Below are positions 739 through 56,421 of a DNA stretch of 64,000 bases, one piece after another; positions within the stretch are counted from its first letter, which is position 1, and each line of letters begins with the position of its first letter. Source of the DNA: an uncultured Acidobacteriaceae bacterium (GTDB taxonomy: Bacteria > Acidobacteriota > Terriglobia > Terriglobales > Acidobacteriaceae); assembly GCA_963836295.1 (NCBI GenBank), contig CAWIIY010000004.1:26962-90961 (forward strand). The letters run 5' to 3'. Under the pieces are notes generated by a model. It saw only the letters and a program-made list of their open reading frames with translations. It was not told the DNA's origin and searched no databases. A program made the position numbers and the translations under genes.

Positions 739-762
739 GCCTTGACTTGGCGATATGCAGTA

Positions 763-2805: not shown

Positions 2806-2824
2806 CTGCAGTCAGAAAACCAAC

Positions 2825-2861
2825 GCCCCGGAGTGCACCTCCTGCTCCGGGGCTTTTTCTT
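2825..2861 (+). terminator. Rho-independent terminator
   Basis: GCCCCGGAG / 11-nt loop / CTCCGGGGC followed by TTTTTCTT, 20 nt after the stop at 2805. Confidence 0.6.
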
Positions 2862-2941
2862 GCGCCGGTTGACTGCGATCAGAATTCATCGTCCTATGGA
2901 TATACCGCCGGTATCATAAGAAGCAGAGCCAGGAGCCAACC

Positions 2942-16816: not shown

Positions 16817-17866
16817 CTACTTGGCCACGCGATCGGCAATCCACTGCGCGCACTCGCGTGTGCCCAGCGAACCTCCTACGTCCACTGTTGTCTTTTTCGC
16901 GCGAACCGCATCGAGCACCGCGTTCTCGATCTTCTGCGCTTCAGAGTTCAGCCCGAGATGTGCCAGCATCATCGCAGCCGTCAGAATCGAGCCAATGGGA
17001 TTGGCGATGTTCTTTCCTGCGATCGGCGGGGCCGAGCCATGTACCGGCTCAAACATCGAGGTGCGGCCGGGATGGATGTTGCCGCTGGCAGCCATGCCGA
17101 GCCCACCCTGCAGCGCGGCCGCGAGGTCAGTGATGATGTCGCCGAACATATTGTTGGTGACGATCACATCCAGTGAGCCCGGCTCGCGTACGATTTGCAG
17201 GCAGAGTGCGTCCACGTACATGTGCTGGGTCTGAATATCGGAATATTCCTTCGCCACGTCCTTGAAGACGCGCTGCCACAAGCCGCCAGCGTAGGTCATC
17301 ACGTTGGACTTGTCGGACATCATCACCTTCTTGCGTCCGTTGGCGCGGGCGTATTCGAAGGCAAAGCGGATGACGCGCTCGACCCCTTTGCGCGTATTGA
17401 TGTCCTCCTGCGTGGCGACCTCGTCGGGGGTGCCGAACTTGAAATTGCCGCCCATGTCCATGTAAACGCCTTCGGTGTTCTCGCGAATGACCGTAAAGTT
17501 GACGTCGTCAGGCGTGACGTTTCTCAGTGGGCAGAGCGAAGCATCAAGCAGGCGCACCGGACGAACATTGGCGTAAAGGTCCATCTTGAAGCGCATGCCC
17601 AACAGAATTTCCTTGGCGTGGATGTTGCTGGGCACGCGCGGATCACCCAACCCACCGACAAAGATCGCATTGAAGTCACGAGTCAGCATCTGAAAGCCGT
17701 CTGGCGGAACGGTGGTGCCGTCGACCAGGTAGCGGTCCGCGCCCCAGTCGAAAGTAGTGAACTCGACAGCCGCTCCAGTAGCGCGAACCACTTCGAGGGC
17801 GTTGGGGATGACTTCTTTACCGATACCATCTCCGGGAACAACAGCGATCCGCTTGGTGGTGGTCAC
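16817..17866 (-). CDS. Isopropylmalate/tartrate dehydrogenase family protein (LeuB-like)
   Basis: KRIAVVPGDGIGKEV, IRENTEG and NMFGDIITD motifs. GTG 17866 is preferred because ATG 17896 lies inside a heptamer repeat. Start uncertain. Confidence 0.85.
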   Translation of the reverse strand: MTTTKRIAVVPGDGIGKEVIPNALEVVRATGAAVEFTTFDWGADRYLVDGTTVPPDGFQMLTRDFNAIFVGGLGDPRVPSNIHAKEILLGMRFKMDLYANVRPVRLLDASLCPLRNVTPDDVNFTVIRENTEGVYMDMGGNFKFGTPDEVATQEDINTRKGVERVIRFAFEYARANGRKKVMMSDKSNVMTYAGGLWQRVFKDVAKEYSDIQTQHMYVDALCLQIVREPGSLDVIVTNNMFGDIITDLAAALQGGLGMAASGNIHPGRTSMFEPVHGSAPPIAGKNIANPIGSILTAAMMLAHLGLNSEAQKIENAVLDAVRAKKTTVDVGGSLGTRECAQWIADRVAK

Positions 17867-17881
17867 GGGGAAATAGTAGCA

Positions 17882-17916
17882 CTCAGCATTCAGCACTCAG
17901 CAGTCAGTAGTGGTGA
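17882..17916. repeat. Heptanucleotide tandem repeat CTCAGCA TTCAGCA CTCAGCA GTCAGTA GTGGTGA
   Basis: Read directly in the divergent intergenic region. Confidence 0.8.
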
Positions 17917-17990
17917 GCAATTCGGTGGGGGAGGTGCCGTACGAATTCTCTTTGGTTCAGATTGCCGGGATTTGTTGGACAATCAAAGGC

Positions 17991-18004
17991 TGACTGCTGA
18001 CTGC
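17991..18004. repeat. TGACTGC TGACTGC, an inverted partner of the 17882-17916 block
   Basis: The reverse complement GCAGTCAGCAGTCA matches CAGCAGTCAG in the upstream block. Confidence 0.7.
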
Positions 18005-18039
18005 CACTTCGGTCCCTTCGCTATAATCAAAGGTTCAGT

Positions 18040-19096
18040 ATGCGTGTTACGACCTTCCAAGAGAAGCTTGCAGCTAGCGGCGCACGCCTTGGCATGTCTC
18101 GCGGCGCGGAAACTCCGGCCGACTTCGGCGATTCCGCGACTGAATTTCAGGCGCTGCTGCAGGGCTGCGCTCTCTTCGACATGAGCTGGCAGGCCAAGCT
18201 GGTATTGGCCGGAGAAGGACCGCGTGCGCTGGCTGAATGGCATGGTCACGAACAATGTCCGCGACCTTGCACTGGGAAACGGTGTGTACAGCTTCATGCT
18301 GAGCGCACAAGGGCGAATCCAGGGAGATCTAGTGGCCTACAACCGCGGCGACTACCTGCTCGTGACCACCGACCGCGAGCAAGCGCCTACCATAGCTGAG
18401 ATCTTTGATCGTTACATCATCATGGATGACGTTGAGGTCGCCGACATCAGTGACAAGCTCGCCGCGATTGGCGTGGTTGGCCCGAAGTCGCGCGAAATTC
18501 TGGCCGCTGCCGGCGTGGAGGTCTCTCAACTCGAACCCGGCCAGGTGATCGACAGCGTGTGGCACGATGTTGGGATTTCCATAGCGCGCAGTGCACAGCC
18601 GCAGATGGATGGATTCGAGATTTGGTTTGCCTCGGAGAACGTGGACACAGTCTGGGACGCCTTGCTCTCGGCTGGCGCGACGCCCTGCGGCAGCAATGCC
18701 CTCGAATTCTATCGCATCGTCAGAGGCGTACCGCGCTTCGGAATTGACCTTCGCGAACGAGATTTGCCGCAGGAAACCGGACAGCAGCACGCATTGAATT
18801 TCGCCAAGGGCTGCTACATCGGGCAGGAGATCGTGGAGCGAATTCGCTCGCGCGGCAACGTGCATCGCATGTTCACCGGCTTCGAAGTACAAGGCGATCT
18901 GCCAACGCCGGGAAGTAAGGTCCGCGCCAACGATAAGGACGTGGGAGAGATAACCAGCGCAGCGCGGATTCCATTTCCGAGCGGCGAGCGGACGCTGGCG
19001 CTCGGCTATCTGAGGCGCGAAGCGGCAACTCCCGGCGCCACGGTGCAGATCGGCGAGCAGACAGCAATAGTACAGACCCTTCCGTTCAGCGAGTGA
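18040..19096 (+). CDS. Folate-binding YgfZ/GcvT-family protein, split by a 1-nt frame change
   Basis: ORF 18040.. reads ...DMSWQAKLVLAG. One missing base near 18210-18212 joins it to EKDRVRWLNGMVTNNV... (ORF 18224..19096). C-terminus has CYIGQEIVERI. Confidence 0.75.
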
Positions 19097-39977: not shown

Positions 39978-40910
39978 ATGGGTTTTACCGCCGGTGGGGG
40001 ATTTATGCCCACGGCCGCGATGTCGCACCTGGATGTGCTGGAAGCCGAGAGCATCCACATAATGCGTGAGGTTGTGGCGGAGTCCTCACGGCCCGCGATG
40101 TTGTACTCCATCGGCAAGGATTCGTCAGTCATGTTGAGGCTCGCCCAGAAGGCCTTTTACCCTGGACGAATTCCCTTTCCGTTGATTCACATTGATACCG
40201 GGTTCAAGTTTCGCGAGATGATCGCGTTCCGCGATCACATTGCCCATGAAACTGGCGTGGAATTGATTGTCCACACCAATCGGGAGGCGAAGGAACAAGG
40301 CGCCAACCCCTTCCAACTGGGCACTACCAAATGCTGTGCTCTGTTGAAAACTAAGGCCCTATTGGACGTTCTCGCTGCCCATCACATCGATGCGGCCATC
40401 GGCGGGGCGCGCCGTGAGGAAGAAAAATCGCGCGCCAAGGAACGGGTGTTTTCCCTACGCGATTCCCTCGGCCAATGGGACCCCAAGGACCAGCGCCCCG
40501 AATTCTGGAGCCTCTACAATGGCCGCGTCGAACCCGGTCAAAGTATGCGCGTCTTTCCTCTCTCAAATTGGACTGAGCTGGACGTATGGGAGTACATCCA
40601 GAGAGAGAATATTCCGGTCGTTCCCCTCTATTTCGCCAAAGAGCGCGAGATGCTGGTACGAGGCGACTACCTGATCCCTCTTGACCACCCCATTGATCTG
40701 TTGCCGGGCGAGCAACCGCAGCGGGTGATGTGCCGCATGCGCTCGCTCGGCTGCACCTACTGCACCGGCGCAATTCGTTCGACCGCTTCAACGGTCGCCG
40801 AGATTGTGGAGGAACTGAAGTTCTTCCGCCGTTCCGAGCGGGAAAACCGGGTCATCGACCACGATCAGGAAGGCTCCATGGAGCTCAAGAAACGGGAGGG
40901 TTATTTTTGA
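39978..40910 (+). CDS. cysD: Sulfate adenylyltransferase subunit 2
   Basis: LEAESIHIMREV...MLYSIGKDSSVML...PFPLIHIDTGFKFREMI. Alternative ATG at 40020. Confidence 0.9.
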   Translation: MGFTAGGGFMPTAAMSHLDVLEAESIHIMREVVAESSRPAMLYSIGKDSSVMLRLAQKAFYPGRIPFPLIHIDTGFKFREMIAFRDHIAHETGVELIVHTNREAKEQGANPFQLGTTKCCALLKTKALLDVLAAHHIDAAIGGARREEEKSRAKERVFSLRDSLGQWDPKDQRPEFWSLYNGRVEPGQSMRVFPLSNWTELDVWEYIQRENIPVVPLYFAKEREMLVRGDYLIPLDHPIDLLPGEQPQRVMCRMRSLGCTYCTGAIRSTASTVAEIVEELKFFRRSERENRVIDHDQEGSMELKKREGYF

Positions 40911-42743
40911 GCACTGCGGGCGCGGAGCGGGACTTGCTGCGCTTCTTAACAGCGGGCAGTGTGGACGACGGCAAGTCAACCCTGATTGGCAGGCTGCTTT
41001 ACGATTCCGATGGTATCTACGACGATCAGCTTTCCTCGTTGCGCAAGGCGTCGGCCGCCAAGAACGTCGCACTCGATCTGTCTTTGCTGACGGACGGTTT
41101 GCGGGCCGAGCGCGAGCAAGGTATCACGATCGATGTCGCTTATCGTTATTTCTCCACCCCCCGCCGAAAGTTCATCATAGCCGACGCGCCCGGTCACGAG
41201 CAGTACACGCGCAACATGGCGACCGGGGCCTCGACGTCCGAATTGGCTGTGATCCTGGTGGATGCCCGCAAAGGTGTCTTGCAGCAGACACGCCGACACA
41301 CCCTGATCGCGTCGCTGATGGGTATCCGCCAGATGATCGTGGCCATCAACAAGATGGACTTGGTGGACTTCGACCAGCAGGTGTTTCATTCGATTCGCGA
41401 TCAGTTCGGAGAGTTCCTAAAGTCCCTGCAGGGCGCCGAATTCCATTTCGTGCCTTTGAGTGCGCTTGAGGGCGACAATGTCATCGAGCGCAGCGATCGA
41501 ATGCCATGGTACGAGGGAAAGTCACTGCTGCACCTGCTCGAGACCATTCCTACGGCCGCCCGGCGCGATGGCGGGCTGCGCTTTCCCATCCAGAATGTCG
41601 TTCGCCCCAATCCGGATTTCCGCGGTTATGCCGGGCAGGTAGGGTCAGGCATCGTGAGGCCCGGACAGGAAGTCATTGCCTTGCCCTCGCTGCAGCGCAC
41701 CACAGTCAAAGAGATACTGCTTCATACCAAGACCCTGGAGGAAGCTGGTCCGAGCCAATCGGTCGTGCTGACCACCACTGATCACATCGACCTGGGCAGG
41801 GGCGACATGCTAGTGGCCTCCGACGCGGTTCCTGCGGTGTCGGCGAAAATCACTGCTTACCTGATCTGGCTATCGCACACGCCGCTGCGCAAGAGCACTC
41901 GCTATCTGGTCAAGCACACGACACAGGTGTTATGCGGCAAAGTCAGCCGCCTGAATCACAAAATCGAGATCAATACTTTCGCCAAGCTGGATGCCGACAG
42001 TCTGCATTTCAACGAAATCGGCGAGGTGCCAACTCGACCTGCACAACCCGATTTTCTGCGATCCCTACCAGCACAATCGCAGCACGGGAAGCTTCATTGT
42101 CATCGATCCTTTCAACAACGATACCCTCGCCGCCGGCATGATTGTGGAAGCAACTCCCGACCGTCCCAGCGAAGCAACCGATGGGGCCTATGCCGGCTCT
42201 AGCGTCGCGCGGCAGCAGGGATTGACAGTTTGGTTTACCGGCTTGAGCGCAGCCGGTAAGACAACGATTTGCAGGGCCGTCGCCACCGAGCTTCTGGCCC
42301 ACGGGTTGCAGGTGGAAGTGATTGACGGCGATGTCATCCGCAACTATCTTTGCAAGGATCTTGGTTTCAGTAAGCACGACCGGGACGAAAATATCCGCCG
42401 CATCGCATTCGTGGCGCAGTTGCTGACGCGAAATGGCGCGATCGTTCTCGTCTCGGCGATTTCGCCCTATCGGGCGGCACGCGATGCCGCGCGCCATTCC
42501 ATTGGCGACTTCATGGAGGTTTACGTCAACACTCCCCTCGCCGTGTGCGAGGTGCGCGATCCCAAGGATCTCTACAAGAAGGCACGGGCCGGCGAGATCA
42601 CCGGATTCACCGGCATCGACGACCCCTACGAGCCGCCAATGGGGCCGGAAACTATTTGCAACACCGACCAGGAGAGTACGCGAGAAAGCTCCTCGAAGGT
42701 GGTGGCGGCGGTCCTTCGCTACCTTGCTGCAAAACGCTCTTGA
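40907..42743 (+). CDS. cysNC: Bifunctional sulfate adenylyltransferase subunit 1 / APS kinase, split by a 1-nt frame change
   Basis: TTG 40907 overlaps the cysD stop and has GGGAGGG upstream. GTPase motifs GSVDDGKST, DAPGH, NKMD. An extra C at 42029 (GAG GTG C CAA CTC) joins to the APS-kinase part with P-loop GLSAAGKTT. Confidence 0.85.
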
Positions 42744-42785
42744 ACTGGGGTTGGGCGTTCCGATTCCGACGACGAGTTAGGCGGA

Positions 42786-43592
42786 ATGGTACTGGACTTA
42801 GGCGCAATCGCCGGAAGAGTTGCCGTAGGTCTAGCCGTCGGCGTCCTGGTTGGACTCACTGGACTCGGCGGCGGCATGGTGCTGCTCCCAGTACTGATTT
42901 CTGTCTTGGGCGTTCCACCCATCCTCGCCGTCGGCTCCGATGCCGTTATCAACTGCATTACCAAGATTGGAGCGGGTGGACTGCATTGGCGTCAGGGAAA
43001 CGTCAGTTGGCGACTGGTGCTCAGCCTGACTTACGGCAGCATCCCGGGCGCCATCATTGGAGTGGCCATCCTGACATGGGTGCGTGCGACCTTCGGGAAT
43101 GGGGTCAACGACTTCCTGCGGGCCTCAATCGGGGTCTTGTTGGTCGTCATTCCAGTTGGATACTTGTTCAAGCCGCGCGCTTCCGCTCCTCAGGTTTCTT
43201 TTTCGGTATTGCAGGAGAAAAAGTATTGCTTTGGTGTCACGCTCATCGGATTCTTCGCCGGGATTCTGGTGGGCTTGACCTCCATCGGCTCGGGCAGTGT
43301 CATCCTGGTGCTGCTACTAGTCTTCTACGGTTTTCCGCCCGCCATGCTGGTGGGCACCGACATTATTCATGCCGTTCTGCTGGCAGGGCTGACCGGCTGG
43401 CTTCAGTTCAAGCTCGGCAACGTGGATTTCGTTCTCGTTCTGTGCGTGCTCATGGGTTCTGTCCCAGGAGGCCTCTTGGGCGCTTATCTGGCCAGCCACG
43501 TGTCATCCTCCCGGCTCAAGCAGGTACTCTGCGTGCTGCTCATGGCCGTTGGGGCAAGAATGCTCTGGGGAGTGTTGGTCCATGCTAACTGA
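42786..43592 (+). CDS. TauE/SafE-family anion permease
   Basis: Polytopic membrane protein; GLTGLGGGMVLLPVL and internal repeat GLTSIGSGSV. Confidence 0.8.
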   Translation: MVLDLGAIAGRVAVGLAVGVLVGLTGLGGGMVLLPVLISVLGVPPILAVGSDAVINCITKIGAGGLHWRQGNVSWRLVLSLTYGSIPGAIIGVAILTWVRATFGNGVNDFLRASIGVLLVVIPVGYLFKPRASAPQVSFSVLQEKKYCFGVTLIGFFAGILVGLTSIGSGSVILVLLLVFYGFPPAMLVGTDIIHAVLLAGLTGWLQFKLGNVDFVLVLCVLMGSVPGGLLGAYLASHVSSSRLKQVLCVLLMAVGARMLWGVLVHAN

Positions 43593-44397
43593 GTCTGCGC
43601 AGCGCCAATACCTGGCGCGCATCAAGCGTGCTCTGCAGGCTGCCACCGAGATCGCCAGGCAGTATGCGCCTGGCACGTTTCGCGTGCGCGACAACGGCGG
43701 ACGCAACGTGATCACCGAGGTTGACTGCCGGCTTAGCGAGGTGCTCCGCGGCCACTTACTGCAGCCTGGCGAGGGTTGGCTTTCGGAGGAAGATCCCGAC
43801 GACCAGGCACGGCTGGCTTCCGACATTGTCTGGGTGGTAGATCCCGTAGACGGCACGCGCGAATTCGTCGATGTCATTCCCGAGTGGTGTATCTCGGTGG
43901 GACTCGTCGTGGAGGGAGTGGCTACCGCCGGCGGCACCTGCAATCCGGCCAGCAATGAGTCGTTTTTGGGCTCGCTGGATTGCGGCGTTACGTACAACGG
44001 TCGTCTCGTGCGCGCCGCAACGCGCACAACTTTGGATGGTGCAGTCGTGCTCGCCAGCCGCCAGGAGTGCAAACGCGGAGAGTGGCGGCGCTTCGACCAA
44101 GCTCCCTTCGAGGTTCGACCGATGGGATCCATCGCCTACAAACTCTCCCTTGTTTCTGCGGGACTGGCCGATGCCACGTGGACACTGTCTCCCAAGCACG
44201 AGTGGGATGTGGCCGCTGGAGTCGCGCTGGTCACTTCCGCGGGTGGCCATGTTGCCTGCACCGACAATGCCGCGCCGCGGTTCAATCGCAGCAACACGCT
44301 TGTGGCGAAATTGGTGGCCAGCGGAGAAGCCCTCTGGCCAGAAATCGTTCAATTCATTGAGCGAGATCGAAGTTCGAAGAACCTTGATACAGCCTGA
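43582..44397 (+). CDS. cysQ: Inositol-monophosphatase-family 3'(2'),5'-bisphosphate nucleotidase
   Basis: WLSEED and WVVDPVDGTREF motifs; overlaps the permease by 11 nt. Confidence 0.75.
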   Translation: MLTESAQRQYLARIKRALQAATEIARQYAPGTFRVRDNGGRNVITEVDCRLSEVLRGHLLQPGEGWLSEEDPDDQARLASDIVWVVDPVDGTREFVDVIPEWCISVGLVVEGVATAGGTCNPASNESFLGSLDCGVTYNGRLVRAATRTTLDGAVVLASRQECKRGEWRRFDQAPFEVRPMGSIAYKLSLVSAGLADATWTLSPKHEWDVAAGVALVTSAGGHVACTDNAAPRFNRSNTLVAKLVASGEALWPEIVQFIERDRSSKNLDTA

Positions 44398-44740
44398 ACA
44401 AAAGGGACAAGATGCGCGTCAGCCCGCAACGCATGTAGTTGAAGCTATTGGAGAAACAAGACTTACGGATGATGAGGTACAGGACATTTGAGGCCGATTC
44501 ACCCAAATCAAAAGGCAAGCTAAATCAATGATTTACAGCCACGGTCCTGGCTCCGTACTACCACCTCTCTGGAAAGTTGCCCCGGTATTAGCAACAGATT
44601 GCGATCAAACATGTCCGCCATCCCTGCATGCTTGACATACCGTCATTGCGCGTCCCGAAGCGCCGATGAATAAGCTTCGATCCTGTGCTATAGTCGATAA
44701 TCTGCAGGGTTGGACGCCAGTTTCAGATCCGGAGGAGTTG

Positions 44741-44971
44741 ATGAAGTACCGGCGGAACGTTCTAACTACTTTTGTGGTGTGTGCTTTGTGCCTTGTATTT
44801 GTTACAACCCCGGCTTACGCATACGTCGACCCCAACGCAGTGGGTTTGGCTTCCCAGATACTGACTCCTATCCTGATAGCCGCCGCCGCCGGCGTTACAT
44901 TCCTTAGAAAACGAATCGGAGCTGCTTTCGGCGCATTGGCGCGGCGCCTGCGGCGACGCGCTAATGCCTAG
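44741..44971 (+). CDS. Small membrane protein (76 aa)
   Basis: GGAGGAG lies 4 nt before the ATG. Signal/TM segment, YVDPNAVGLASQILTPILIAAAAGV second TM, Arg-rich tail. Stop overlaps the next start (ATGCCTAG). Confidence 0.45.
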   Translation: MKYRRNVLTTFVVCALCLVFVTTPAYAYVDPNAVGLASQILTPILIAAAAGVTFLRKRIGAAFGALARRLRRRANA

Positions 44972-46925
44972 TCGCGATTTCCGTTCCACGGTCGCGTCGC
45001 TCTGGTTCCGGCTGATCACCCTCGGGATTCTCGGCTTGGCCTTTGCCGAAACGCTCAGTCTGGCACAGGGAGAGGTTCAGGGCTGGACCTTTTATCTCAC
45101 CACTGCTGGGATCGTTTTCGAAGTAGCGGTGCGTCTGATTTTCGCGTCGCTGGCCGGTGTCGCTTTAGGGACCCTCTGTACCGCCGCCCTTGCCCCCTTT
45201 CTCTGGCATTTCAGGTCATCGCGCGAACGAATTGCCGAGTGGGCGACAAAGGTTGGCGTGGTTCTGGTCGTATTCCTGGATTCCAGGTTTGCGTTGACAA
45301 TCCTGATCAATTTGTGGGGGGCTAACCACGGCCCGCGATTTGCGACCACTTTGCTCACAGCCCACTTCCTGGCTTTCGCCGTAGCCCTTTACATTCCTCG
45401 CATCCGGAGACAAGTGGTGACGAGCATCGACGGCTTCATGGGCGAAAAGATGACTCGACGCACCGCTATTGCGACAATCGTCGGCGCTGGTGGTCTAGTG
45501 GCCACGGAATTTGCTCTTAGCAGGACAGCACCCGTGGTAAAGGCAGCGCTGCTTCCGCAGCGGCCAAAATCTAACATCCTGCTGATCACTTTCGACGCCT
45601 TAAGTGCGGAAGATATGTCCCTTTACGGGTATGGGCTGCCGACCACTCCGATGATCGACGCTTTTGCCCGCACGGGTACAGTCTTTAAGAACTTCTATTC
45701 CGCCTCTACCTTCACGACTCCAAGCATAGCGACGCTGCTGACGGGACTCTATCCCTCAGGACACCATGTTTATCAGCTGAGAGGCCACGTGCGGGCGCAG
45801 GACGCCAAGAGGAGCCTGCCGCACGCCATGCGAGCCGCCGGCTACGCCACTGGCGCGTTCTTCTCCAACCCGTATGCATACTATCTCGCGGAGACCATGA
45901 GGAACGAGTTCGATTTCCTGCCGCAGCCAACCTTCCAGCAGGGTGGGTTGCAACATCTGTGGGAGGGCACCAGCTGGCTGCACCAGGATACTAGGATTGG
46001 AAGCCGCATCGACGAATACAACGATTTGATGTATGTCTGGAATTCTCTGGGCCGGTTGCCCTACGTTCTCCCCCTGGAGTTCCGGGCGGCCGAGAGTTTC
46101 GCACAGGCGCGGGAAATGCTCGCCAAATTGCCCGATGGATTTTTCCTGTGGGTCCATGTGATGACACCGCACAACCCCTATCATCCCGATGCGGCAGACC
46201 GGGGACGTTTCATCCCTGACGACCAACTGCGAACATTTGAATTTGAAGGGGACGACGGCTTGCCTCGCTGGTATCCGCATTACAGCCCCGACCAGCAGAG
46301 CCAAGTGAACCAGCGTCGTCTTGCCTACGACGAGTTCGTCGCCACCGCCGATCGCGCCTTCGGGGTCTTCATGTCGGAATTGGAAAACAGCGGAAATTTG
46401 AGGGACACAACGGTCATTGTGTCGGCCGATCATGGGGAAAGTTTTGAGGGCGGCGTCTATCAGCATGAAAGCCGGTATCTGACCCGGCCGGTTATCCACA
46501 TCCCTCTTATCATCCGCACACCCGACCAGCAGGAAGGCCGCATGGTTGCATTTACCGCGGACCAGACAGCGCTCGCACCCACGATTCTCGAGCTCGCCGG
46601 TCAGCCGAAACCTGATTGGATGCCCGGCCAATCGCTTGTGCGGTGGCTGAACAGGGATGGCCAAGGCGAAGGTGAGGGACTGGCGTTCTGCCAGTATCTG
46701 CAGCAGAACAGCGTTTTCAAGCCCCTGCGGGAGGGAACCGTAGGCGTGATCGACGGGCAGTACCAATATGTCCTTGTCCTTTCTACTGGAACGGGTGTGC
46801 TTCGCCGGCTGAACGAAGCGCAGTTCTGGAACCTCGACCGCGCTGCCGAATATCCTGAGCGGGCGGAGGCATTGCGCGCTGTGATCTATTCGCGATTTCC
46901 GAATCTAATGCAAAAATCTACGTGA
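44964..46925 (+). CDS. Polytopic membrane protein with alkaline-phosphatase-superfamily (sulfatase/LtaS/EptA-like) domain
   Basis: About 5 N-terminal TM helices, then ILLITFDALSAEDM, SASTFTTPSIATLLTG (Thr where sulfatases have Cys/Ser) and SADHGESF. Confidence 0.75.
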   Translation: MPSRDFRSTVASLWFRLITLGILGLAFAETLSLAQGEVQGWTFYLTTAGIVFEVAVRLIFASLAGVALGTLCTAALAPFLWHFRSSRERIAEWATKVGVVLVVFLDSRFALTILINLWGANHGPRFATTLLTAHFLAFAVALYIPRIRRQVVTSIDGFMGEKMTRRTAIATIVGAGGLVATEFALSRTAPVVKAALLPQRPKSNILLITFDALSAEDMSLYGYGLPTTPMIDAFARTGTVFKNFYSASTFTTPSIATLLTGLYPSGHHVYQLRGHVRAQDAKRSLPHAMRAAGYATGAFFSNPYAYYLAETMRNEFDFLPQPTFQQGGLQHLWEGTSWLHQDTRIGSRIDEYNDLMYVWNSLGRLPYVLPLEFRAAESFAQAREMLAKLPDGFFLWVHVMTPHNPYHPDAADRGRFIPDDQLRTFEFEGDDGLPRWYPHYSPDQQSQVNQRRLAYDEFVATADRAFGVFMSELENSGNLRDTTVIVSADHGESFEGGVYQHESRYLTRPVIHIPLIIRTPDQQEGRMVAFTADQTALAPTILELAGQPKPDWMPGQSLVRWLNRDGQGEGEGLAFCQYLQQNSVFKPLREGTVGVIDGQYQYVLVLSTGTGVLRRLNEAQFWNLDRAAEYPERAEALRAVIYSRFPNLMQKST

Positions 46926-48025
46926 GCCGACAATATCTGAACCTCACTTCGGGCGCTTGGCGGCAACTTCGCCGGAGCTGGCACCTCCGACCAAGTCCTA
47001 TGCTGCTTTGGCAAACCCTGGCGCCCGGTTCCCTATTCTCCGCGATGGCGGCATTGCAGGAGATGTCCGCTCGCAAGCAACTGGCCCAGGCAAATTACCG
47101 GAACGCCATCGTAATTCTTGGCTACTGGCGTTCCGGCACGACGCTGCTGCACGAGTTACTGTGCCTTGATGCCCGTTACACCTATCCGACGACGCATGCT
47201 TGCATGAACCCTCATCATTTCCTACTCTCGGAAGCCTCGGTCCTGGCTCGCGGAGGTTCCAGCCGGCAGCGGCCGATGGATGAGATGGAGGTTCATGCCG
47301 GTTCGCCGCAGGAGGACGAGTTCGCACTTCTGTCGCTGGGCGCGCGTTCGCCTTACGAAGCGCTTCTGATTCCCAGGATACTGCCGGAGGCCCTGAAGCT
47401 CACCGACCCTCGAGACCTTTCATCGCGAGATGAAGAGCGCTGGCGCGAGGTTTTCCTGAGTTTTCTCGCGGGTGTATCGGTGCGGGGAATGGGCCGGCCC
47501 ATGATCCTGAAATCGCCGACGCACGGCTGTCGCGTCGCCATTGTTCGCGAACTGCTTCCGGATGCGCGCTTCGTGGTGATCGTGCGCGACCCTTGGACCA
47601 GCTTCGAATCGGTGGTCCGAATGTGGCGCAAAATGTTTGAAACGTACGCCATTGGATCGATACTGCCAGATGACGATATCCGCGAAGCGATTATCGCCGA
47701 TCGGCCCCGCTTTGAGGCGAAGCTGGCCTCCAGTACCGCCGATCTGCCCACGAACCGATTCATGACGATAACCTACGAGTCTCTAATTGCTAATCCAGCC
47801 GAGGTGATCGAACAGCTCTACGATCGGCTGGAACTCGGAGATTTCAACACAATGCGTGAGGCGGTCATCGCCGAGACGAAACGCCGCCGTGGATACCAGG
47901 CGAAGGGCACCTTGCCGTCGGACTTATGGCGACAGCGAATTAGTAATGAGTGGGCGGCGATTCTAACGCATCATGCAAATTTACGGCAACGCGCGTTCTC
48001 TCTGCCGGAAGGGGCTCCGGGCTAA
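46922..48025 (+). CDS. Sulfotransferase-family protein
   Basis: 5'-PSB-like GYWRSGTTLLHELL and 3'-PB-like KSPTH...VVIVRDP. GTG overlaps the previous stop (GTGA). Confidence 0.75.
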   Translation: MSRQYLNLTSGAWRQLRRSWHLRPSPMLLWQTLAPGSLFSAMAALQEMSARKQLAQANYRNAIVILGYWRSGTTLLHELLCLDARYTYPTTHACMNPHHFLLSEASVLARGGSSRQRPMDEMEVHAGSPQEDEFALLSLGARSPYEALLIPRILPEALKLTDPRDLSSRDEERWREVFLSFLAGVSVRGMGRPMILKSPTHGCRVAIVRELLPDARFVVIVRDPWTSFESVVRMWRKMFETYAIGSILPDDDIREAIIADRPRFEAKLASSTADLPTNRFMTITYESLIANPAEVIEQLYDRLELGDFNTMREAVIAETKRRRGYQAKGTLPSDLWRQRISNEWAAILTHHANLRQRAFSLPEGAPG

Positions 48026-50008: not shown

Positions 50009-50503
50009 TTACCCTCCAGAGATCGCCCCCACGGCAATATCGATCATGTCCCCATCGGATATCGGCAGCGCGCTAAACGCGCTCGCAGGAATTACCTCGT
50101 TGTTGACCGCTACAATGAAATGGTTGATGTTCCGGTTCCGAAAGGTCTTAGCAAGACATTCTTCGCGCCATTTCGTTAGGAGAGATTCCAGAGTGTTAAT
50201 CTCCCAAACATATTCGTGTGTATTGATGCGCACCCTCTTTAGCTTCGTTTCGTATATACGAGCAGGGCTCATAACTTCGCCGTGTTCTTTTTCCACTGGC
50301 AATCCGAGCTTTTCTCTTCGTTTATTGGCACAGTTGAAGCACAGTGCCCCATCATTGACCGCCCGGCCGATGTACAACGATGCTGCCGCGGTCCACGGCC
50401 GCACCTGGGAAGCATTCTGCGGAAGCGTCTGACCCCCGCAATCCACACACTTCAGGAAATGTTTCCGGGTGTTACGTAGCATGATGGAGGGAGATTCACT
50501 CAT
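50009..50503 (-). CDS. Zinc-ribbon + ThiS/MoaD-like beta-grasp protein ending in Gly-Gly
   Basis: CVDCG...CFNCANK (four Cys). C-terminus FIVAVNNEVIPASAFSALPISDGDMIDIAVGAISGG-stop. Confidence 0.7.
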   Translation of the reverse strand: MSESPSIMLRNTRKHFLKCVDCGGQTLPQNASQVRPWTAAASLYIGRAVNDGALCFNCANKRREKLGLPVEKEHGEVMSPARIYETKLKRVRINTHEYVWEINTLESLLTKWREECLAKTFRNRNINHFIVAVNNEVIPASAFSALPISDGDMIDIAVGAISGG

Positions 50504-51029
50504 GGCATCTCATCCTAGTGCGCGCCCCCCGGCCGATCACAATGGAAATCTGGTCGCCATCCGAGATCAGCACAGAGCTGAAGGCGTCTGCGGGAATCAC
50601 TCGGTCGTTTACGGCGACACGCCACCACCTGCTATCTGCTTTCTTGTACTCGTCATAGAAATACTGATCTTTCCATTTCTCGATGACGGATTCCAACGTG
50701 GTGACGTTCCAAGTGTATTCCCACTGATTGACGCGTATTGTCTTGAGAGTCGACTCATTTGAAGAAGCGAGAACTGGACGCTCCGACTCCCTGTTCAAAG
50801 TATGACCGTTATCCTGTTCTAGAGGCAGGCTGAGCGGCGCCCTGCGCTTATTCGCACAAGTAAAGCAGAGCGCTCCGTCATTGACAGCCCCGCTGATATA
50901 CAACGACGCTGCCGCGGTCCAGGGCCGCTCGTTGGAAGCATTCTGCGGAAGCGTCTGACAGCCGCAGTCAACACACTTCAGAAAATGTTTACGCGTGTTA
51001 CGAAGTGATGTGGGTGGACGTTGACTCAT
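50496..51029 (-). CDS. Paralogous zinc-ribbon + ThiS/MoaD-like protein (C-terminus ambiguous at a G6 run)
   Basis: Same N-terminal module (CVDCG...CFTCANK). C-terminus RVAVNDRVIPADAFSSVLISDGDQISIVIGRG... passes through the homopolymer at 50525-50530. Confidence 0.65.
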   Translation of the reverse strand: MSQRPPTSLRNTRKHFLKCVDCGCQTLPQNASNERPWTAAASLYISGAVNDGALCFTCANKRRAPLSLPLEQDNGHTLNRESERPVLASSNESTLKTIRVNQWEYTWNVTTLESVIEKWKDQYFYDEYKKADSRWWRVAVNDRVIPADAFSSVLISDGDQISIVIGRGARTRMRCHE

Positions 51030-51047
51030 GGTGTCTACTCCCAGCTG

Positions 51048-53415
51048 TTACATCGCAGCAACCATGCGTTTGATCAGCGCTTTTATTTCCTGCTTCTTGT
51101 AGCCGTTGTCCTTCATTGCGCAGCATCCATGCAGAGCAGCATCAGCGGCCTTTTCAGCCAGTTCAGTCGAGGGTTTCTGGCCGATAAGTAGGCACTCGGC
51201 TTCTTCCCTGCGAAGCGGAACAGGCGCGACTCCACCCAGGACGAGTCTTACGTCCTTGGTCACGCCGTCTTCTAGTTTGTAGACGTAGGCCAAGCTGGCG
51301 ATAGCAAAATCGATCGATTTGCGGACACGGAATTTGTCGTACTTCATGGTGTAGCCTTGCGGCACGGCGAAGCGGATCGCTGTCACCAGTTCGTCCTGGT
51401 CGAGCATATCTTTCACTGCCAGTCTGGTAGTGAAGAGGTTGGCTGCATCGACAACCCTCTTCGTGGTGACGATCTGGGCATCCAGCGCTATCAGCACGGG
51501 AGAAATATCCGAGGCGTTGACAGAGTAGCAGCCGCAGTTCATGCAGCGAGCCGCTTCCGCCAGGCACTCTTCCGTTGTGATCGTGGAGCTGTCTTCTTTA
51601 TCAAGTGCGCGCTCGCTGACGGAAAGCTCCTTATCCCCATCCCCGATCGCTTCTGCTTTCTTCGCGCCTTCGGGATCGAACTTCAGAAAGCCGTTTTGCA
51701 CGTGCGGCTCGGGCGCACCTCCGCCAAGCTCCTGGTTTATCGCCTCGGCAGCGTTGCGTCCGGTACGGATGGCCATGATTACCGTGGAGGAGCCGGTGAC
51801 AACATCGCCACCGGCGAAGACGCCGCTGCGGCTGGTTCGTCTGAGTGCATGGCTCGACCTTGATGAGTCCCCGGTTTAGCGCGAGTTTGTACTTCTCCTC
51901 GATAAAGGAGAGGTCTACCTTCTGACCGGCAGCCAGCAGCACGGAGTCGCAATCCACAGTGATCTTGGAATGGCGATCGTATTGTGGAGCGAATCGGTGT
52001 TCCGCATCGAAGACCGAGGTGCAGGTCACGAGTTCCATGCCACGAACTTTTTCGCTTTCATAGATCAGACGCGAAACGCCGTAGCCATTCCTGATAACGA
52101 TGCCTTCTTCTACGGCGCGGGCAATTTCTTCCGCGCTGGCAGGCATTTCCCACGCCTGTTCAAGGCAAGCCAGGGTCACCGACTTCGCGCCAAGGCGTTT
52201 CGCGGTGATTGCGACGTCCATGGCCACGTTGCCGCCGCCGACGACCAGCACGTTGTTGCGCTGCTTCTTGTTAATCCAGAGACTGACTTCTCTGAGGAAA
52301 TCCAGACCGAATTCAGTGAACTCCTCGCCGTCGAAACCGAGCGCCGGACGCTTCCACGCGCCCGTAGCGTAGAACACCTTGTCGTAGGAAGCTTCGAGCT
52401 CTGCCGTAGTGACGTCCTTGCCGACACTAATGTTTGTCTGGAATGTGACGCCCATTTCTTTGTAAGCGTCGATGACGTTCTTTACGTAGTGCTTGGGCAG
52501 ACGGTAGGCAGGGATAGCATAGGTCAACATGCCACCTGGCTCTTCCATTTTGTCGATGACGGTGACGGTGTGTCCTGCTTTGCGCAGGTAGTACGCAGCA
52601 GAAAGGCCTGCCGGACCTCCACCGACGAGGGCAATTTTTTTGCCCGTCTCAGTTTTCGGCGCCGCATAGAAGATCTCGAGATTCTCAAGGATATAGTCAC
52701 CAATGACCCGCTCAACTGCGTGAACGGAAACAGACTGATCCGTTGTCCTGCGGTTGCAGCCATCCTGGCAGAAGTGGGCGCAGACACGCGAAGTGATCAT
52801 CGGGAGTGGGTTCGCCTGCATCAGGATGGCCGCGGCTCCCTTCAGGTCCCCAGCGCGCAGCTTTTCCATGTAACCAGGGATATTCGTGTTCCCTGGGCAG
52901 CTCACCGTGCAAGGCGTGGCGGCGGCCTTCATGCCGCCGAAGATGGAGTGATAGCGGTTATCGCCGCGGATTGCATAACACTCATCTCCGCCCTTGCGCA
53001 TGCAGTCGTAACGGTCACCGATCTCATGGGGATAGCGGTAGAACCAGCAGCGAACATCCTGGCAGATATTGCCGCCGATCGTGGCAAGATTACGTATGAT
53101 CGGCGTAGCCACGGAATAAGCGGCCTCGGCCAACATCGGAACTTCGGCCTTGATCGTCTCCGATTCGGCGATCGTCACCAGCCGCGTCAGGGCGCCGATC
53201 TCGATCTGCCCGTTTTCGCACTTGATGTAATCCGCACCTTCGATCCCCTTCAGGCTGATGACCGTTTCCGGGTAGTCTTTGAGTAGTCTGCCCTTGAGGA
53301 CGCCCAGCAGGTCGGTGCCGCCGGCCATTACCACGGTTTTCCCTTTTGCGCTCTCCTGCATTGCGGCGGCGCAGTTTGCGAATGATTCAGCTCGCGCGTA
53401 CTCGAACCGTTTCAT
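51048..53415 (-). CDS. Chimeric flavoprotein subunit: CoxM/XdhB-type FAD-binding domain + GltD-like [4Fe-4S]/NAD(P)H module + CO-dehydrogenase-flavoprotein C-terminal domain (1-nt frame change at 51825)
   Basis: MAGGTDLL and ATIGGNI; then CPGNTNIP...SRVCAHFCQDGC, KIALVGGGPAGLSAAYYL, VLVVGGGNVAMD. The extra base at 51825 joins to GVFAGGDVVTGSSTVIMAIRTGRNAA... (ORF 51048..51776), ending with LVTAIRF...DFAIASLA...VLGGVAPVPLR. Confidence 0.75.
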
Positions 53416-53428
53416 GATGAATCCTTCC

Positions 53429-55751
53429 TTAAGCCTTGCCGAGGGCGTTAAGTACAACAGGCGGGGTTGCGGGATATTCCTTGATGTCAGCACCGATTGC
53501 GTTTGAGATCGCCATTAACGCCGCACTCGCCAGCGCGGCACCGGAAATCTCACCGATACCAAGTGCTTTGAACATGAAGGTGTCGATCTGCGACTCCATC
53601 ACGAAGCCGTCGTAGGGTGGGATTTCATTGAAGGTCATTCCACTTGTAGTCGATCATGCTGCTCGCGAGCAGGCGACCCGTGGAGGGATCGAGGTTGCAG
53701 TCCTCAAAGATCGCGGTATCGAGGCAGGCAGAACCGATGCCGCCGTGGAGCTGCATTTCGAGTGTTTTCGAGTCGATGATCTGACCGATATCAGTGCCAC
53801 CAGCCAGCTTGAGAATCTCGGAGTGACCCGTTTCCAGGTCAACCTCAACTTCAACGAACACCGCGATACAGCTTGGGCAATCGAATTTCTCAACGTGCTT
53901 GCCGTAACCAACGATGGAAAGCTCTCTGTCGGCCAGCCTGCTGACTGAAATTTTGATCTCCGGCGTGTCGCGCACGAAGACGACCATGTCTCTCATGTCG
54001 AGTTGGTCTACGGGGCGATCCAGCTTAATGGAAGCAATCTCCATCGCCTTCTTCTTCGCGTCCAAAGCAGCCTCGCTCACCGCCTTGCCTATGGTGATGG
54101 TGCCGCGAGACCCGCACAAGCCGAAGTTAGAGGGGTTGTTCCGGCTGCCAGGATCGGTGATCGAGACCCACTCATAGGGGCAGTTCAGCACTTCCGCGAC
54201 GACCTTGCAGGCGTTGCTCCTCTGCCCCATGCCGGATTCGGTGATGTCGCACTCGACAATGACAGATGAACCTCCACCGCCGACGTTCGATACGTCCAGA
54301 TCGGGAATGATACGGACGATCGCTTCGGTGTTGTCTTCCTGAATGTCGCAGTTGCCGATGACGCCCATGCCCACGCCGCGAGCCTTGGTGCCGTTGACGG
54401 ACGTCGGCTTGAGCCATCCCTTCCACTTTTCGGACCAGCCGAACCGGTCGGCGGCTGCCTGCATGACCTCCGGGAAGAACAACGAGGAACGGCTCTTATA
54501 AACGCGGCCGTCACGCCAGATGTATTTATCGCCAGGGGAGACGTAGTTCTTCTTGAAGACGTCGAGGGGGTTGAAATTACCTTCCCGCATAATCGCGCAC
54601 AGCAGTTTCTCAAGGCAGCTATTCAGTTCCTGACCACCGTACCCGCGGACGATCCCAGCCTGCTGGCGGTTGGTGACGGCAATATGGCTGTCGAGAAACC
54701 AGTTCTCGCACTTGGCGAGCACGAGCTGAGCTTCGCCCAGACCTACGCCGATCTGACCCTGGGTCGAGTTGCAGACGCAACCGACATCGACCAGCCAGTC
54801 GCCTTTAACGGCGGTGACGATACCTTCCTTATTCGCGGCCATCGTGGCTTTGATCGTGCTGCCCAAGCGGACTTCATAGGTCATGAGCTGTTCGGCTTTG
54901 CTCAATACGACCTTGACCGGCCGTTTCGTTACATTCGCCAGCATGGCGGCGGAAACGGCGGCGTTCAGCATCGTCTGCTTGTTACCGTAGCTTCCACCAA
55001 CGTTGAACGTGTTCACGTCAATCACTGCGCCCGGCACGTAGGCCTGCATCAAGAGCTTCATGATGTGCGAGCTCTGCGAGGATGCCCACACCGTATAGTG
55101 CGTCCCGCCGTCGTACCGGGCGATCACCGACGGTGTCTCCGGAGCTGCCGGGCACGGCATCCTTGAAAATTCGATCTTGTCGTCTGCGACAAAGTCGGCT
55201 TCGGCGATGGCCTTGTCGGGATCTCCTCTCTTGACCTGCCAGAAGGGCCCATCCGGCTGGAAGTAGGGGCAACCGGGGTCCACCAGGTTGCCGGGAAAGC
55301 GTTCGTATAACTGTGGAGCGCCTGGCTTAAGGGCGTCCTCTGCCGTAAAAACAGCCGCAAGCTGCTCGTACTCGACCGTGATCAGATCAACGGCCGCTTC
55401 GGCGATCTCCATTGTGTCGGCAGCAACGATCGCTATTTGGTCGCCCACATGAAAGGCCTTCGATTCCAAAACGCGCCGGTGTACCGGCCAACCGAGAGCT
55501 GCCAGGAACGGCGCGTTTTCGTGGGTGATGACCGCGCGGACGCCTTCCAGCGCTTCCGCCGCGGAGGTGTCGATCTTCACGATTTTGGCGTGCGGGTAAG
55601 GACTCCGCTTCGTCCTTCCGTACAACATCTGCGAAAGCGAGAAGTCGTCCAGAAAGCGCGCTTTGCCGGTGACGATGTCGCGGGCTTCTTTTCGAGGTGA
55701 GTATTTGCCGATGTGACGATAATTCGGCTGTCTAACATCGCGGTATTTCAT
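53429..55751 (-). CDS. Molybdopterin-binding large subunit of a xanthine dehydrogenase/aldehyde oxidase-family hydroxylase (1-nt frame change at 53639)
   Basis: N-terminal a/b-hammerhead pattern (IGKYSPRKEARDIVTGKARFLDD...YGRTKRSPYPHAKI). The C-terminal 69 aa (...FKALGIGEISGAALASAALMAISNAIG...) sit in ORF 53429..53638 after one extra base. Confidence 0.85.
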
Positions 55752-55767
55752 CGCCATTCCCTTTTCG

Positions 55768-56421
55768 CTAATCGAGCGAATGCTTGCAAATATGTCCGGT
55801 CGCGTAAGGACTGGGATACAGTTCCTGTCGAATCGGAATCGGGTCCTCGGCCAGATCATTGGCCCGGACGATCGTCGAGAGTTCCGCGTCCGTGTTGCCC
55901 GCGAGTTTGTTCAAGGCTCTCAAGACTGTGTAGTGGCTGATGCAGCGGCAGAAATTGCCGGCAAGAGCTTCCTTGATCTCATCCGGCGTCGGCTGGGCCT
56001 TCTTCAGGAAGAGAGCTTTCGCGACCATGATGATGCCCGGGGTGCAGAAGCCGCACTGGAAAGCGTATTCATCGATAAATGCCTGCTGGATCGGATCAAG
56101 ACCCTTCCTGGCATCTTCCAGTCCCTCTATAGTGGTGATGTTCCTACCGTCCATTTCGACCGTCAGCGTCATGCAGGCGGCAATAGCATCTCCGTCGGCA
56201 ATGACGGCACAGCAACCACAGGCACCGGCTCCACACGATTCCTTCGAGCCGGTCAACTGCAGCCGTTTGCGAAGTGTTTCAAGGAGTGTTTCGGAGGGCG
56301 AAATGTCGCCCGCGCCATCGCCGACAGAGAACTTGTATCTTCTGTCGTTTATGTTCAGGGTAATCGATTCAGGCGTAACTAATTTGCTGCTGTTTTGAGA
56401 AACCACACCGCTCGTGACCAT
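55768..56421 (-). CDS. [2Fe-2S]-binding small subunit (CoxS/XdhC-iron-sulfur type) with N- and C-terminal extensions
   Basis: CGAGACGCC and CGFCTPG...NFCRC motifs; AAGGAAG lies 6 nt before the ATG. Confidence 0.85.
   Translation of the reverse strand: MVTSGVVSQNSSKLVTPESITLNINDRRYKFSVGDGAGDISPSETLLETLRKRLQLTGSKESCGAGACGCCAVIADGDAIAACMTLTVEMDGRNITTIEGLEDARKGLDPIQQAFIDEYAFQCGFCTPGIIMVAKALFLKKAQPTPDEIKEALAGNFCRCISHYTVLRALNKLAGNTDAELSTIVRANDLAEDPIPIRQELYPSPYATGHICKHSLD

Follow-up and report, generated by a model that had tools for sequence, protein, structure and literature searches.

Reductively working members of the xanthine-oxidase family, such as 4-HBCR (4-hydroxybenzoyl-CoA reductase), Ucd and Uxd, remove phenolic hydroxyl groups without oxygen and have hitherto been described from denitrifiers and gut Firmicutes. 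Uxd (uxdFOC), the 10-hydroxy-urolithin dehydroxylase of Enterocloster, was described in 2025 and has been validated experimentally (PMC12658268). In the ucd operon the genes stand in the order C-F-O, and the FAD subunit is of the ordinary kind (PMC11760930). A second theme comes from the tungsten aldehyde oxidoreductase (AOR) operon aorABCDE of Aromatoleum aromaticum, in which three subunit genes are followed by two MoaD-like genes. Their products, AorD and AorE, do not form part of the purified enzyme, and a function in cofactor maturation is assumed for them (PMC6365974), and AOR-linked MoaD genes occur in sporadic mobile clusters (PMC1779556). Here we analyzed a five-gene block at 50009-56421 of a 64-kb stretch from an uncultured Acidobacteriaceae bacterium (contig CAWIIY010000004.1; the whole stretch is called the window below). 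It encodes a [2Fe-2S] (FeS) subunit, a molybdenum (Mo) subunit, a chimeric flavoprotein and two small ubiquitin-like (Ubl) proteins, UblB and UblA. Judged by its domains, the product of the first three genes is a three-subunit xanthine-oxidase/CO-dehydrogenase family enzyme of the Uxd type. The two small genes, each combining a zinc-finger-like domain with a ThiS fold, make up a tiny family that has not been described before and is linked to this enzyme; for this family we tentatively favor a role in cofactor maturation.

Subunits, relatives and proposed electron path of the enzyme

The enzyme was analyzed with the intact proteins of a near-identical assembly (L001, see below). The small subunit carries Fer2_2 (4.3e-26) together with Fer2 and Fer2_3, which places it with the three-subunit xanthine oxidases and CO dehydrogenases in our domain test. 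In the large subunit all three Mo-pterin domains were found, i.e. the a/b hammerhead (Ald_Xan_dh_C), MoCoBD_1 and MoCoBD_2. The motif GIGEISGAA, located in its frameshifted C-terminal piece, includes a Glu that we take to be the catalytic active-site residue. Its best solved relative is the alpha subunit of 4-HBCR (1rm6_A, 3.5e-42), CO dehydrogenases come next, and no NCBIfam equivalog reached its cut-off.

The flavoprotein is chimeric, as an earlier note on this DNA, made from the sequence alone, had recognized. Its domains follow in the order FAD_binding_5 (profile positions 2-113), Cys-rich loop, Fer4_20, Pyr_redox_2, the remainder of FAD_binding_5 (positions 116-167) and CO_deh_flav_C. FAD_binding_5 is thus interrupted between profile positions 113 and 116, where some 470 amino acids (aa) are inserted. 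Read as modules, a CoxM/HcrB-type N-terminal FAD part and a predicted HcrB/PaoB-type [4Fe-4S] loop are followed by a GltD/NfnB-like insert and then by the rest of the FAD domain with CO_deh_flav_C. The insert, a module for two [4Fe-4S] clusters, FAD and NAD(P)H, matches NfnB/GltD-type chains of the Protein Data Bank (PDB; 9bov, 9n5u, 8oh5_C, 4ylf_B and 5jca_L) with E-values from 1e-90 to 1e-52. The N-terminal part matches HcrB (1rm6_B, residues 13-165) as well as PaoB and 5y6q_B, all of which hold an extra [4Fe-4S] cluster. In a residue-by-residue alignment C118, C123, C138 and C146 coincide with HcrB C117, C122, C138 and C146. The position of HcrB C155 is occupied by Tyr, and a Cys 14 residues further on, C169, aligns with a Cys of 5y6q_B. 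Overall, the Pfam results fit the domain description given in the earlier note ([2Fe-2S] subunit, Mo-pterin subunit, flavoprotein and two Ubl proteins), with ThiS a weak match both times.

That note had also proposed an uncharacterised redox system. A wholly uncharacterised one is not supported, because the same gene order (2Fe-2S, Mo and FAD subunit, or F-O-C) and an FAD subunit enlarged by a 4Fe-4S domain and a second FAD/NAD(P) domain, with two FAD predicted, have been described for Uxd (PMC12658268). Uxd, too, is an enzyme of the xanthine-oxidase family with similarity to 4-HBCR. It differs in that uxd operons have no ThiS-like genes and that their hosts are gut Firmicutes, as opposed to the soil acidobacterial metagenome-assembled genome (MAG) studied here. 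Ucd was ruled out as the identity of the enzyme by its gene order and by its FAD subunit without extra domains (PMC11760930). Among solved structures, 4-HBCR (HcrABC, 1RM6) matches the Mo subunit best and also strongly matches the N-terminal FAD part including the Cys loop, and it serves as a model for inverted (reductive) electron flow. However, equivalog-level similarity to 4-HBCR is not reached, because the scores lie far under the cut-offs of TIGR03194 (HcrA, 274 versus 995 bits) and TIGR03195 (HcrB, 140 versus 405 bits). In addition, free ferredoxin is replaced as the predicted electron donor by a fused NAD(P)H unit of the GltD/NfnB-like kind, the window contains no CoA ligase, and the Tyr at the HcrB Cys155 position marks a further difference.

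The flavoprotein architecture is widespread among anaerobes (7311 matches), with 65-66% identity in Enterocloster bolteae and Synergistaceae, and relatives of the Mo subunit form a graded series down to 48% identity in many anaerobes. The E. bolteae homologues of the three subunits are 66.5, 70.5 and 65% identical to those of the window. Their operon (L015), possibly the 'uxd homolog' of PMC12658268, consists of TetR, FeS, Mo, flavoprotein, MFS, AMP-binding ligase, CoA transferase, 4HBT thioesterase, MocA and molybdenum cofactor (Moco) biosynthesis genes. In L017/18 and L019/20 the order is FeS, Mo, flavoprotein, AMP-binding ligase, CoA transferase and MFS, and the flavoproteins are 75 and 70% identical to that of the window, respectively. 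Across these uncharacterised F-O-C operons of E. bolteae and other anaerobes (L015 and L017-L020) identity to the window amounts to 65-73% for Mo, 64-77% for flavoprotein and 64-79% for FeS subunits, with equal lengths and domain order. They differ in carrying genes for an AMP-binding CoA ligase, CoA transferase, MFS, 4HBT thioesterase and TetR proteins instead of UblB and UblA. In a Klebsiella sp. isolate (L021), genes for MocA, a TylF methyltransferase, a His_Phos/HD protein and XdhC come after those of the three subunits. No Ubl gene was found in any of these relatives (L015 and L017-L021). Among Mo subunits, identity is at least 75% within the Ubl-type clade, 83-87% within the CoA-ligase-type clade and 65-73% between the two. 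We also observed that TylF methyltransferase, NTP_transf_3 (MocA-like) and His_Phos_1/HD genes are shared near the Uxd-type operons of L015 (106-4794) and L021 (12745-16385), with XdhC in Klebsiella.

These sequence relationships place the enzyme, as a new member, in the reductive, Uxd/4-HBCR-like branch of the xanthine-oxidase family, with its catalytic direction presumed from those relatives. Electrons would enter from NAD(P)H at the GltD/NfnB-like module inserted in the FAD subunit. They would then pass over the FAD and two [4Fe-4S] clusters of the module to the HcrB-type [4Fe-4S] loop and the proximal FAD, and would finally reach the molybdenum cofactor over the two [2Fe-2S] clusters. By analogy with 4-HBCR, Ucd and Uxd, the reaction is most likely reductive, a dehydroxylation or related reduction of an aromatic or heteroaromatic substrate. 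For the class to which Uxd belongs, reductive dehydroxylation at the expense of NAD(P)H has been demonstrated or proposed.

The UblB/UblA family and its mobility

UblA is a 100% match to NCBI WCC92_16590 from a 'Candidatus Korobacteraceae bacterium' MAG (Acidobacteriota). Relatives of the two small proteins are rare. Among 5.8 billion proteins we detected 84, all from metagenomes or MAGs, and they belong to two co-occurring types: an A-type of about 164 aa that ends in ...GAVAGG and a B-type of about 170-176 aa. A profile search of 1.84 billion cluster representatives yielded 23 matches, and the N-terminal domain (N-domain) occurred in no other architecture among these representatives. Three loci among 185,579 GTDB species representatives carry the family. 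The Ubl gene or genes lie directly behind the flavoprotein gene in all seven readable contexts (L001-L004, L005-7, L008, L009, L010/11, L012 and L013/14). UblB is present in every Ubl-type locus, and one lineage (L009, L013 and L014) has UblB without UblA. The gene order of the block recurs in at least five other loci, and the five genes are thus a conserved unit, as had been supposed.

Similarity to ThiS is detectable in the C-terminal part. Against Pfam ThiS, UblB scores 3.4e-4 over its whole length and 23.6 bits with its C-part (cut-off 22.5; range 18.4-23.6 bits), and NCBIfam thiS gives 1e-6; full-length Ubl proteins score below the family cut-offs of both databases. In an AlphaFold2 (AF2) model of UblA (predicted local distance difference test, pLDDT, 75) the C-domain is a predicted ThiS/MoaD beta-grasp, and Foldseek with this domain retrieved ThiS (3cwi, 7.7e-4, probability 1.0; 1f0z and 1zud) and MoaD (3rpf). 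The earlier note had taken both proteins for GG-type. This is correct for UblA, which ends in ...AISGG, and the GG is invariant in the aligned A-type proteins across about 55-73% identity. It is not for UblB, which ends in ...GRGARTRMRCHE and whose orthologues end in GRGRYR, GRGRYY, GCLLHPF or longer basic tails, never in GG.

A beta-grasp fold with a free GG tail could also belong to a ubiquitin-like modifier, with UblA being attached to lysine residues of the enzyme or of different targets. Some prokaryotic ThiS/MoaD-type proteins indeed carry sulfur and form conjugates (PMC11323500). However, neither E1 and E2 nor JAMM/deconjugase genes were present in the gene calls of the seven contexts or among the scanned open reading frames (ORFs; at least about 140 aa) of the window. 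This also separates the Ubl neighborhoods from SAMP/TtuB- and Bil/Bub-type conjugation systems, as the E1, E2 and JAMM Pfam families occur in none of them. Moreover, the family occurs only beside one enzyme and one of its two paralogues has no GG. We consider conjugation very improbable, and the suggestion that the pair tags the enzyme is unsupported.

The N-domain holds four cysteines, C19, C22, C55 and C58, that are invariant or nearly so. The AF2 model (pLDDT 80) places C19-x2-C22 on a knuckle and C55-x2-C58 at a helix start, which would be a treble-clef-like arrangement. No Pfam family matched this domain (zf-dskA_traR was non-significant at E 0.066), and Foldseek against the PDB gave only weak RING/ZAD-type treble-clef matches (E about 0.6). 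Between paralogues the N-domains are 65-89% identical and do not sort by A- and B-type, whereas the C-parts do, with 33-51% identity across types. In the window itself a 239-nt direct repeat with 76% DNA identity (50280-50518 versus 50806-51044) corresponds to the N-domains of UblA and UblB. These are 89% identical to each other, compared with 76-84% between UblA and its own orthologues. The pattern hints that gene conversion has acted on these tandem paralogues.

The earlier note had further judged the block to be low in G+C and horizontally acquired. Low G+C applies to the two small genes (0.517 and 0.536; 2% of 1-kb windows are lower) and is marginal for the whole block (0.564 versus 0.577 for the window; 22% of equal-sized windows are lower), whose tetranucleotide distance lies at about the 94th percentile. 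Composition is therefore a weak argument for foreign origin, as the block stays within the normal spread of G+C and only the 1-kb Ubl pair is low. Mobility is apparent from other loci. A 6.04-kb cassette of FeS, Mo, flavoprotein and UblB genes is 99.6% identical between L009 (4586-10623) and L013/L014 (L013 4586-10623 and L014 1-2112), with unrelated flanks. The similarity extends from 16 nt before the first start codon to 116 nt past the UblB stop. On both sides of the L009 cassette lies a direct repeat of 402 bp (94% identical) that represents a class-V aminotransferase gene's 3' end; a repeat search found no flanking repeat in L013, and the 402-bp repeat is confined to the L009 context. At a distance of 2-7.5 kb downstream of its cassette, L013 encodes an SNF2 helicase, an HTH_17 protein and a phage-type integrase. 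Different flanks were also seen for the Ubl-type clusters of the window, L005, L008 and L010. Horizontal spread of the unit is supported because a 99.6% identical cassette sits in two contexts and because the flanks differ.

The MAGs bear the labels Acidobacteriota, 'Actinomycetota', Zixibacteria and Acetobacteraceae, bin assignments that are to be taken with caution. A search for plasmid homologues gave none for UblA and only partial GltD-like matches for the flavoprotein. We also noted a short Proton_antipo_N (NuoL-like) fragment across the right cassette boundary. The locus places a close relative of the reductive enzymes, equipped with its own predicted NAD(P)H module, on a mobile cassette in uncultured soil Acidobacteriota-type genomes, which is of relevance to the anaerobic turnover of plant phenolics.

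Sequence integrity, layout and surroundings of the operon

In the window the Mo subunit is spread over two ORFs (53625-55859 and 53429-53638): the first terminates in ...DYKWNDLQ*, and the final 68 aa lie in another frame. The flavoprotein is split in the same way (51631-53493 and 51048-51776), with the frame change near 51840. L001, which comes from another assembly and is 99.9% identical, has no extra bases and encodes intact proteins of 773 and 788 aa, and its 217-aa FeS subunit is identical to that of the window. The extra base at 51837 is also missing from the independent Logan assembly L003, and both L002 and L003 match L001 wherever they overlap. Over 19.6 kb, window and L001 differ by six single-base indels and 13 substitutions. 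Five of the six indels break frames. One (42028) lies within an L001-matched fused GTP_EFTU/APS_kinase gene of the sulfate adenylyltransferase/APS kinase type, two (48433 and 48525) lie within one hypothetical gene, and two affect the flavoprotein and the Mo subunit; the sixth (58343) is intergenic. Indels aside, the coding sequence is 99.2-100% identical at the protein level to the near-identical assemblies.

We read the frameshifts as assembly errors because near-identical assemblies are without them and similar indels occur in unrelated genes. The extra bases at 51837 and 53637 are thus most likely errors of the window assembly. A programmed frameshift or a pseudogene was ruled out as the main reading on the same grounds, with three independent near-identical assemblies lacking the extra bases. 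Interruption of two of the three subunit genes would also fit a decaying pseudogene cluster in the window genome, with both frameshifts real. The high number of indels relative to substitutions against three near-identical assemblies, the indels in unrelated genes and the otherwise preserved proteins all speak against decay, to which we assign only a small chance. The indel pattern suggests an error-prone, perhaps long-read, assembly in which further window genes may be hit alike. An ORF for GCV_T (aminomethyltransferase) at 18224-19096 on the plus strand (region 17195-19096) covers only profile positions 60-253. Its N-terminal part may be in another frame, possibly a further indel artefact.

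The five genes of the block are co-directional on the minus strand and tightly packed. The gaps measure 16 nt (FeS-Mo), 13 nt (Mo-flavoprotein) and 18 nt (flavoprotein-UblB), and the UblB stop and UblA start overlap by 8 nt (ATGAGTGA). All four Shine-Dalgarno (SD)-like motifs pointed out earlier are present (AAGGAAG, AAGGGA, AAGGAAGGA and GGGAG). Layout and signals agree with the earlier note, and so does its statement that the block is without regulator, XdhC and transporter. Pfam scans of the ORFs (at least about 140 aa) found none of the three in the block, and tblastn with the XdhC of a relative found no match in the whole 64-kb window, where a cysteine desulfurase is missing as well. Among the remaining scanned ORFs of the window there were housekeeping genes only, and no ThiF/MoeB, MoaE, JAMM, rhodanese or Moco genes. 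Neither a Moco riboswitch nor any other Rfam family was detected near the operon or its relatives, and sigma-70 promoters and intrinsic terminators were not found above shuffled expectation. The coordinates are collected in Table 1.

Table 1. Features of the five-gene block (window coordinates)
Feature	Position	Strand	Description
FeS small subunit, 217 aa	55768..56421	-	first gene of the operon; two [2Fe-2S] domains; SD ctAAGGAAGttcttATG
Mo large subunit	53432..55751	-	773 aa if intact; C-terminal end broken by one extra base (53637)
Chimeric flavoprotein	51048..53415	-	788 aa if intact; broken by one extra base at 51837
Flavoprotein Cys-rich loop, residues ~115-170	52906..53073	-	C118, C123, C138, C146, C169; predicted extra [4Fe-4S] site by the proximal FAD
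UblB, 177 aa	50496..51029	-	4-Cys zinc-finger-like N-domain, variable linker, ThiS-fold domain; without C-terminal Gly-Gly
UblB N-domain	50832..51002	-	89% identical to UblA N-domain
UblA, 164 aa	50009..50503	-	architecture as UblB; ends ...GAISGG, free Gly-Gly
UblA N-domain, residues ~10-66	50306..50476	-	RNTRKHFxKCVDC...NDGALCFxCANKRR, four conserved Cys
Single-base insertion, A on plus strand	53637..53637		frameshifts the Mo subunit; probably an assembly error
Single-base insertion, T on plus strand	51837..51837		frameshifts the flavoprotein; probably an assembly error

A sulfate-activation/sulfation cluster adjoins the operon at 39978-48025 on the plus strand. With Pfam names taken from the L001 gene calls, it consists of PAPS_reduct (CysD-like), GTP_EFTU/APS_kinase (CysN/CysC-like, split at 42028), TauE, Inositol_P (CysQ-like), sulfatase and sulfotransferase. 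Its position next to the operon is not conserved in related loci. A different neighborhood was seen in L008, the only one of the loci with a heterodisulfide-reductase-like set (CCG protein, Fer4 protein and a large Pyr_redox_2/Fer4 protein), encoded divergently upstream at 1-3313 on the minus strand.

Candidate roles of the small proteins and comparison with described systems

In L010/L011, XdhC and MoaA genes lie immediately downstream of the Ubl pair. The pair therefore does not replace XdhC, as had been considered in the earlier note. The other option raised there, that it assists cofactor sulfuration or insertion, is the best-supported guess, given this adjacency, the gene cluster around the protein P0337 and the parallel with aorABCDE. 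P0337, the closest standalone ThiS-domain relative (77 aa, ending in ...IAGG, profile E 6.5e-11), has 37-39% identity with UblA and UblB, roughly what A and B share with each other. Its gene is the last in a co-directional series on L022 (2720-6940), behind MoCF_biosynth, XdhC, Aminotran_5 (cysteine desulfurase type) and NifU_N. To our knowledge, no role has been described for a ThiS-like protein alongside XdhC. Two weaker standalone ThiS matches lie on short, uninformative contigs. Finally, the class-V aminotransferase gene that flanks the L009 cassette is cysteine-desulfurase-like.

The XdhC/MoaA adjacency, the desulfurase-like flank of L009, the P0337 cluster, aorABCDE and the mobile AOR-MoaD clusters together lead us to favor enzyme-specific cofactor maturation or sulfur relay as the function of UblA and UblB. 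Taken as a whole, i.e. including the Uxd-type enzyme and the frameshifts as errors, we hold this best explanation tentatively and with somewhat less than even confidence. It adds presumed sulfur carriage, metal binding and contact with the enzyme to the observed domain content, gene order, conservation, linkage and mobility. Each small protein would be a lineage-specific accessory made of a 4-Cys zinc-finger-like docking domain and a ThiS-fold domain. For UblA, adenylation and thiocarboxylation would be left to a housekeeping enzyme of the MoeB/ThiF type whose gene lies elsewhere. Once charged, UblA would supply sulfur to the pterin cofactor or the terminal sulfido ligand, acting with XdhC and a cysteine desulfurase. 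UblB could not be charged and would be a docking or adaptor paralogue. A sharper version of this scheme is quite unlikely. It makes UblA a dedicated thiocarboxylate that gives sulfur (Mo=S or dithiolene) to the Moco of one enzyme and docks by its 4-Cys domain, with UblB as adaptor or competitor. If true, enzyme-specific Moco maturation would have a third route, based on ThiS and working next to XdhC and cysteine desulfurase, and a mobile 6-kb cassette would spread a reductive polyphenol-type dehydroxylase among soil bacteria.

Several points weigh against the maturation model. UblB, the partner in every locus, is without Gly-Gly and hence no classical thiocarboxylate carrier, and the L009/L013/L014 lineage does without UblA. 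It is the N-domain and not the ThiS domain that is best conserved, which points to docking rather than sulfur chemistry. Neither E1-like proteins (ThiF/MoeB) nor ThiG, MoaE, rhodanese or JAMM were found in the scanned window ORFs or the gene calls of related loci, with a distant housekeeping copy of an adenylating enzyme being possible. The operons of the sister clade (65-73% identity) get by without Ubl genes. The link between XdhC, NifS, NifU and ThiS comes from a single 10-kb contig: a metagenome scan with P0337 for a second such locus gave none, only one chance match in a methyltransferase-like ORF (L025). On the side of the enzyme, the characterised UxdO probably shares no more than 50% identity, judging from the statement that BLAST matches outside the Uxd group stay below 50% (UxdO) and 57% (UxdC) (PMC12658268).

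A serious rival, unlikely on balance as we see it, makes UblB and UblA permanent extra subunits or adaptors. The 4-Cys domain, with zinc or possibly rubredoxin-like iron, would dock on the complex, the ThiS-fold domain would serve assembly, partner recruitment, regulation or electron entry, and the Gly-Gly of UblA would be secondary. The N-domain spacing, C-x2-C-x32-C-x2-C, is one we take to be close to that of rubredoxin. Docking agrees with an N-domain that is alike in both paralogues next to a C-part that sorts by type, with the universal presence of the GG-less UblB and the loss of UblA in one lineage. It also agrees with the tight coupling to the subunit genes (18-nt gap and 8-nt overlap) and with the lack of a nearby E1 gene. 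However, the invariance of GG across the A-type proteins is hard to explain without C-terminal chemistry. In addition, the standalone ThiS relative has XdhC, NifS and NifU, and not enzyme subunits, as its neighbors, sister enzymes need no such subunit, and the analogous AorD and AorE are missing from the purified enzyme (PMC6365974).

The position of the pair allows yet another interpretation, which we regard as improbable. In the sister clade a ligase and CoA_trans occupy the UblB/UblA slot, directly in L017-L020 and after the MFS gene in L015, and the Mo subunits of the two clades are 65-73% identical. The Ubl pair might thus substitute for CoA ligase and CoA transferase, with UblA as a protein-borne carrier, e.g. 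a thiocarboxylate accepting sulfur from reductive C-S cleavage, or a substrate handle. Reductive cleavage of aromatic C-S bonds by the xanthine-oxidase family has been reported, as cited in 10.1101/2025.01.17.632430, and ThiS-like carriers occur with AMP ligases and CoA transferases in the synthesis of the thioacids pyridine-2,6-dithiocarboxylic acid (PDTC) and quinolobactin (PMC1779556). The argument is purely positional, though, and no known chemistry joins a carboxylate substrate to a Ubl C-terminus. The Ubl-type loci contain no adenylating enzyme and UblB has no reactive tail. Finally, Uxd and Ucd use free phenols without CoA, so that loss of the CoA module needs no replacement.

For the maturation or sulfur-relay model, three described systems serve as comparison. 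With ThiS/MoaD sulfur carriers the Ubl proteins have the beta-grasp fold in common, and UblA also the -GG end. The Ubl proteins differ from them in being twice as long, in their unique N-terminal 4-Cys domain and in the missing GG of UblB. In R. capsulatus, XdhC reportedly acts with the cysteine desulfurase NifS4 in Moco sulfuration. XdhC and class-V aminotransferase genes likewise adjoin relatives of the Ubl genes (L010/L011, L009 and L022), whereas neither XdhC nor a desulfurase is present in the 64-kb window.

The likeness to aorABCDE lies in organization: genes for FeS, pterin-cofactor and FAD/NAD subunits come first and two small MoaD/ThiS-like genes follow, with the same strict adjacency to the structural genes of a pterin enzyme as for aorD and aorE. 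On the other hand, the tungsten bis-pterin AOR superfamily stands against a xanthine-oxidase-family enzyme with molybdenum and molybdopterin cytosine dinucleotide (Mo-MCD). No zinc-finger-like N-domain has been reported for the AOR-linked proteins, and AOR clusters often include MoeB and MoaE, which are missing here. The likeness would thus be functional and organizational rather than one of membership. If the Ubl proteins act in cofactor sulfuration, they would offer a handle on enzyme-specific maturation and would account for the difficulty of expressing such enzymes in foreign hosts. The zinc-finger/ThiS pair, with the mechanism we propose for it, would then extend the theme of AOR and MoaD, a pterin-enzyme operon with MoaD/ThiS paralogues of its own, to the xanthine-oxidase family.

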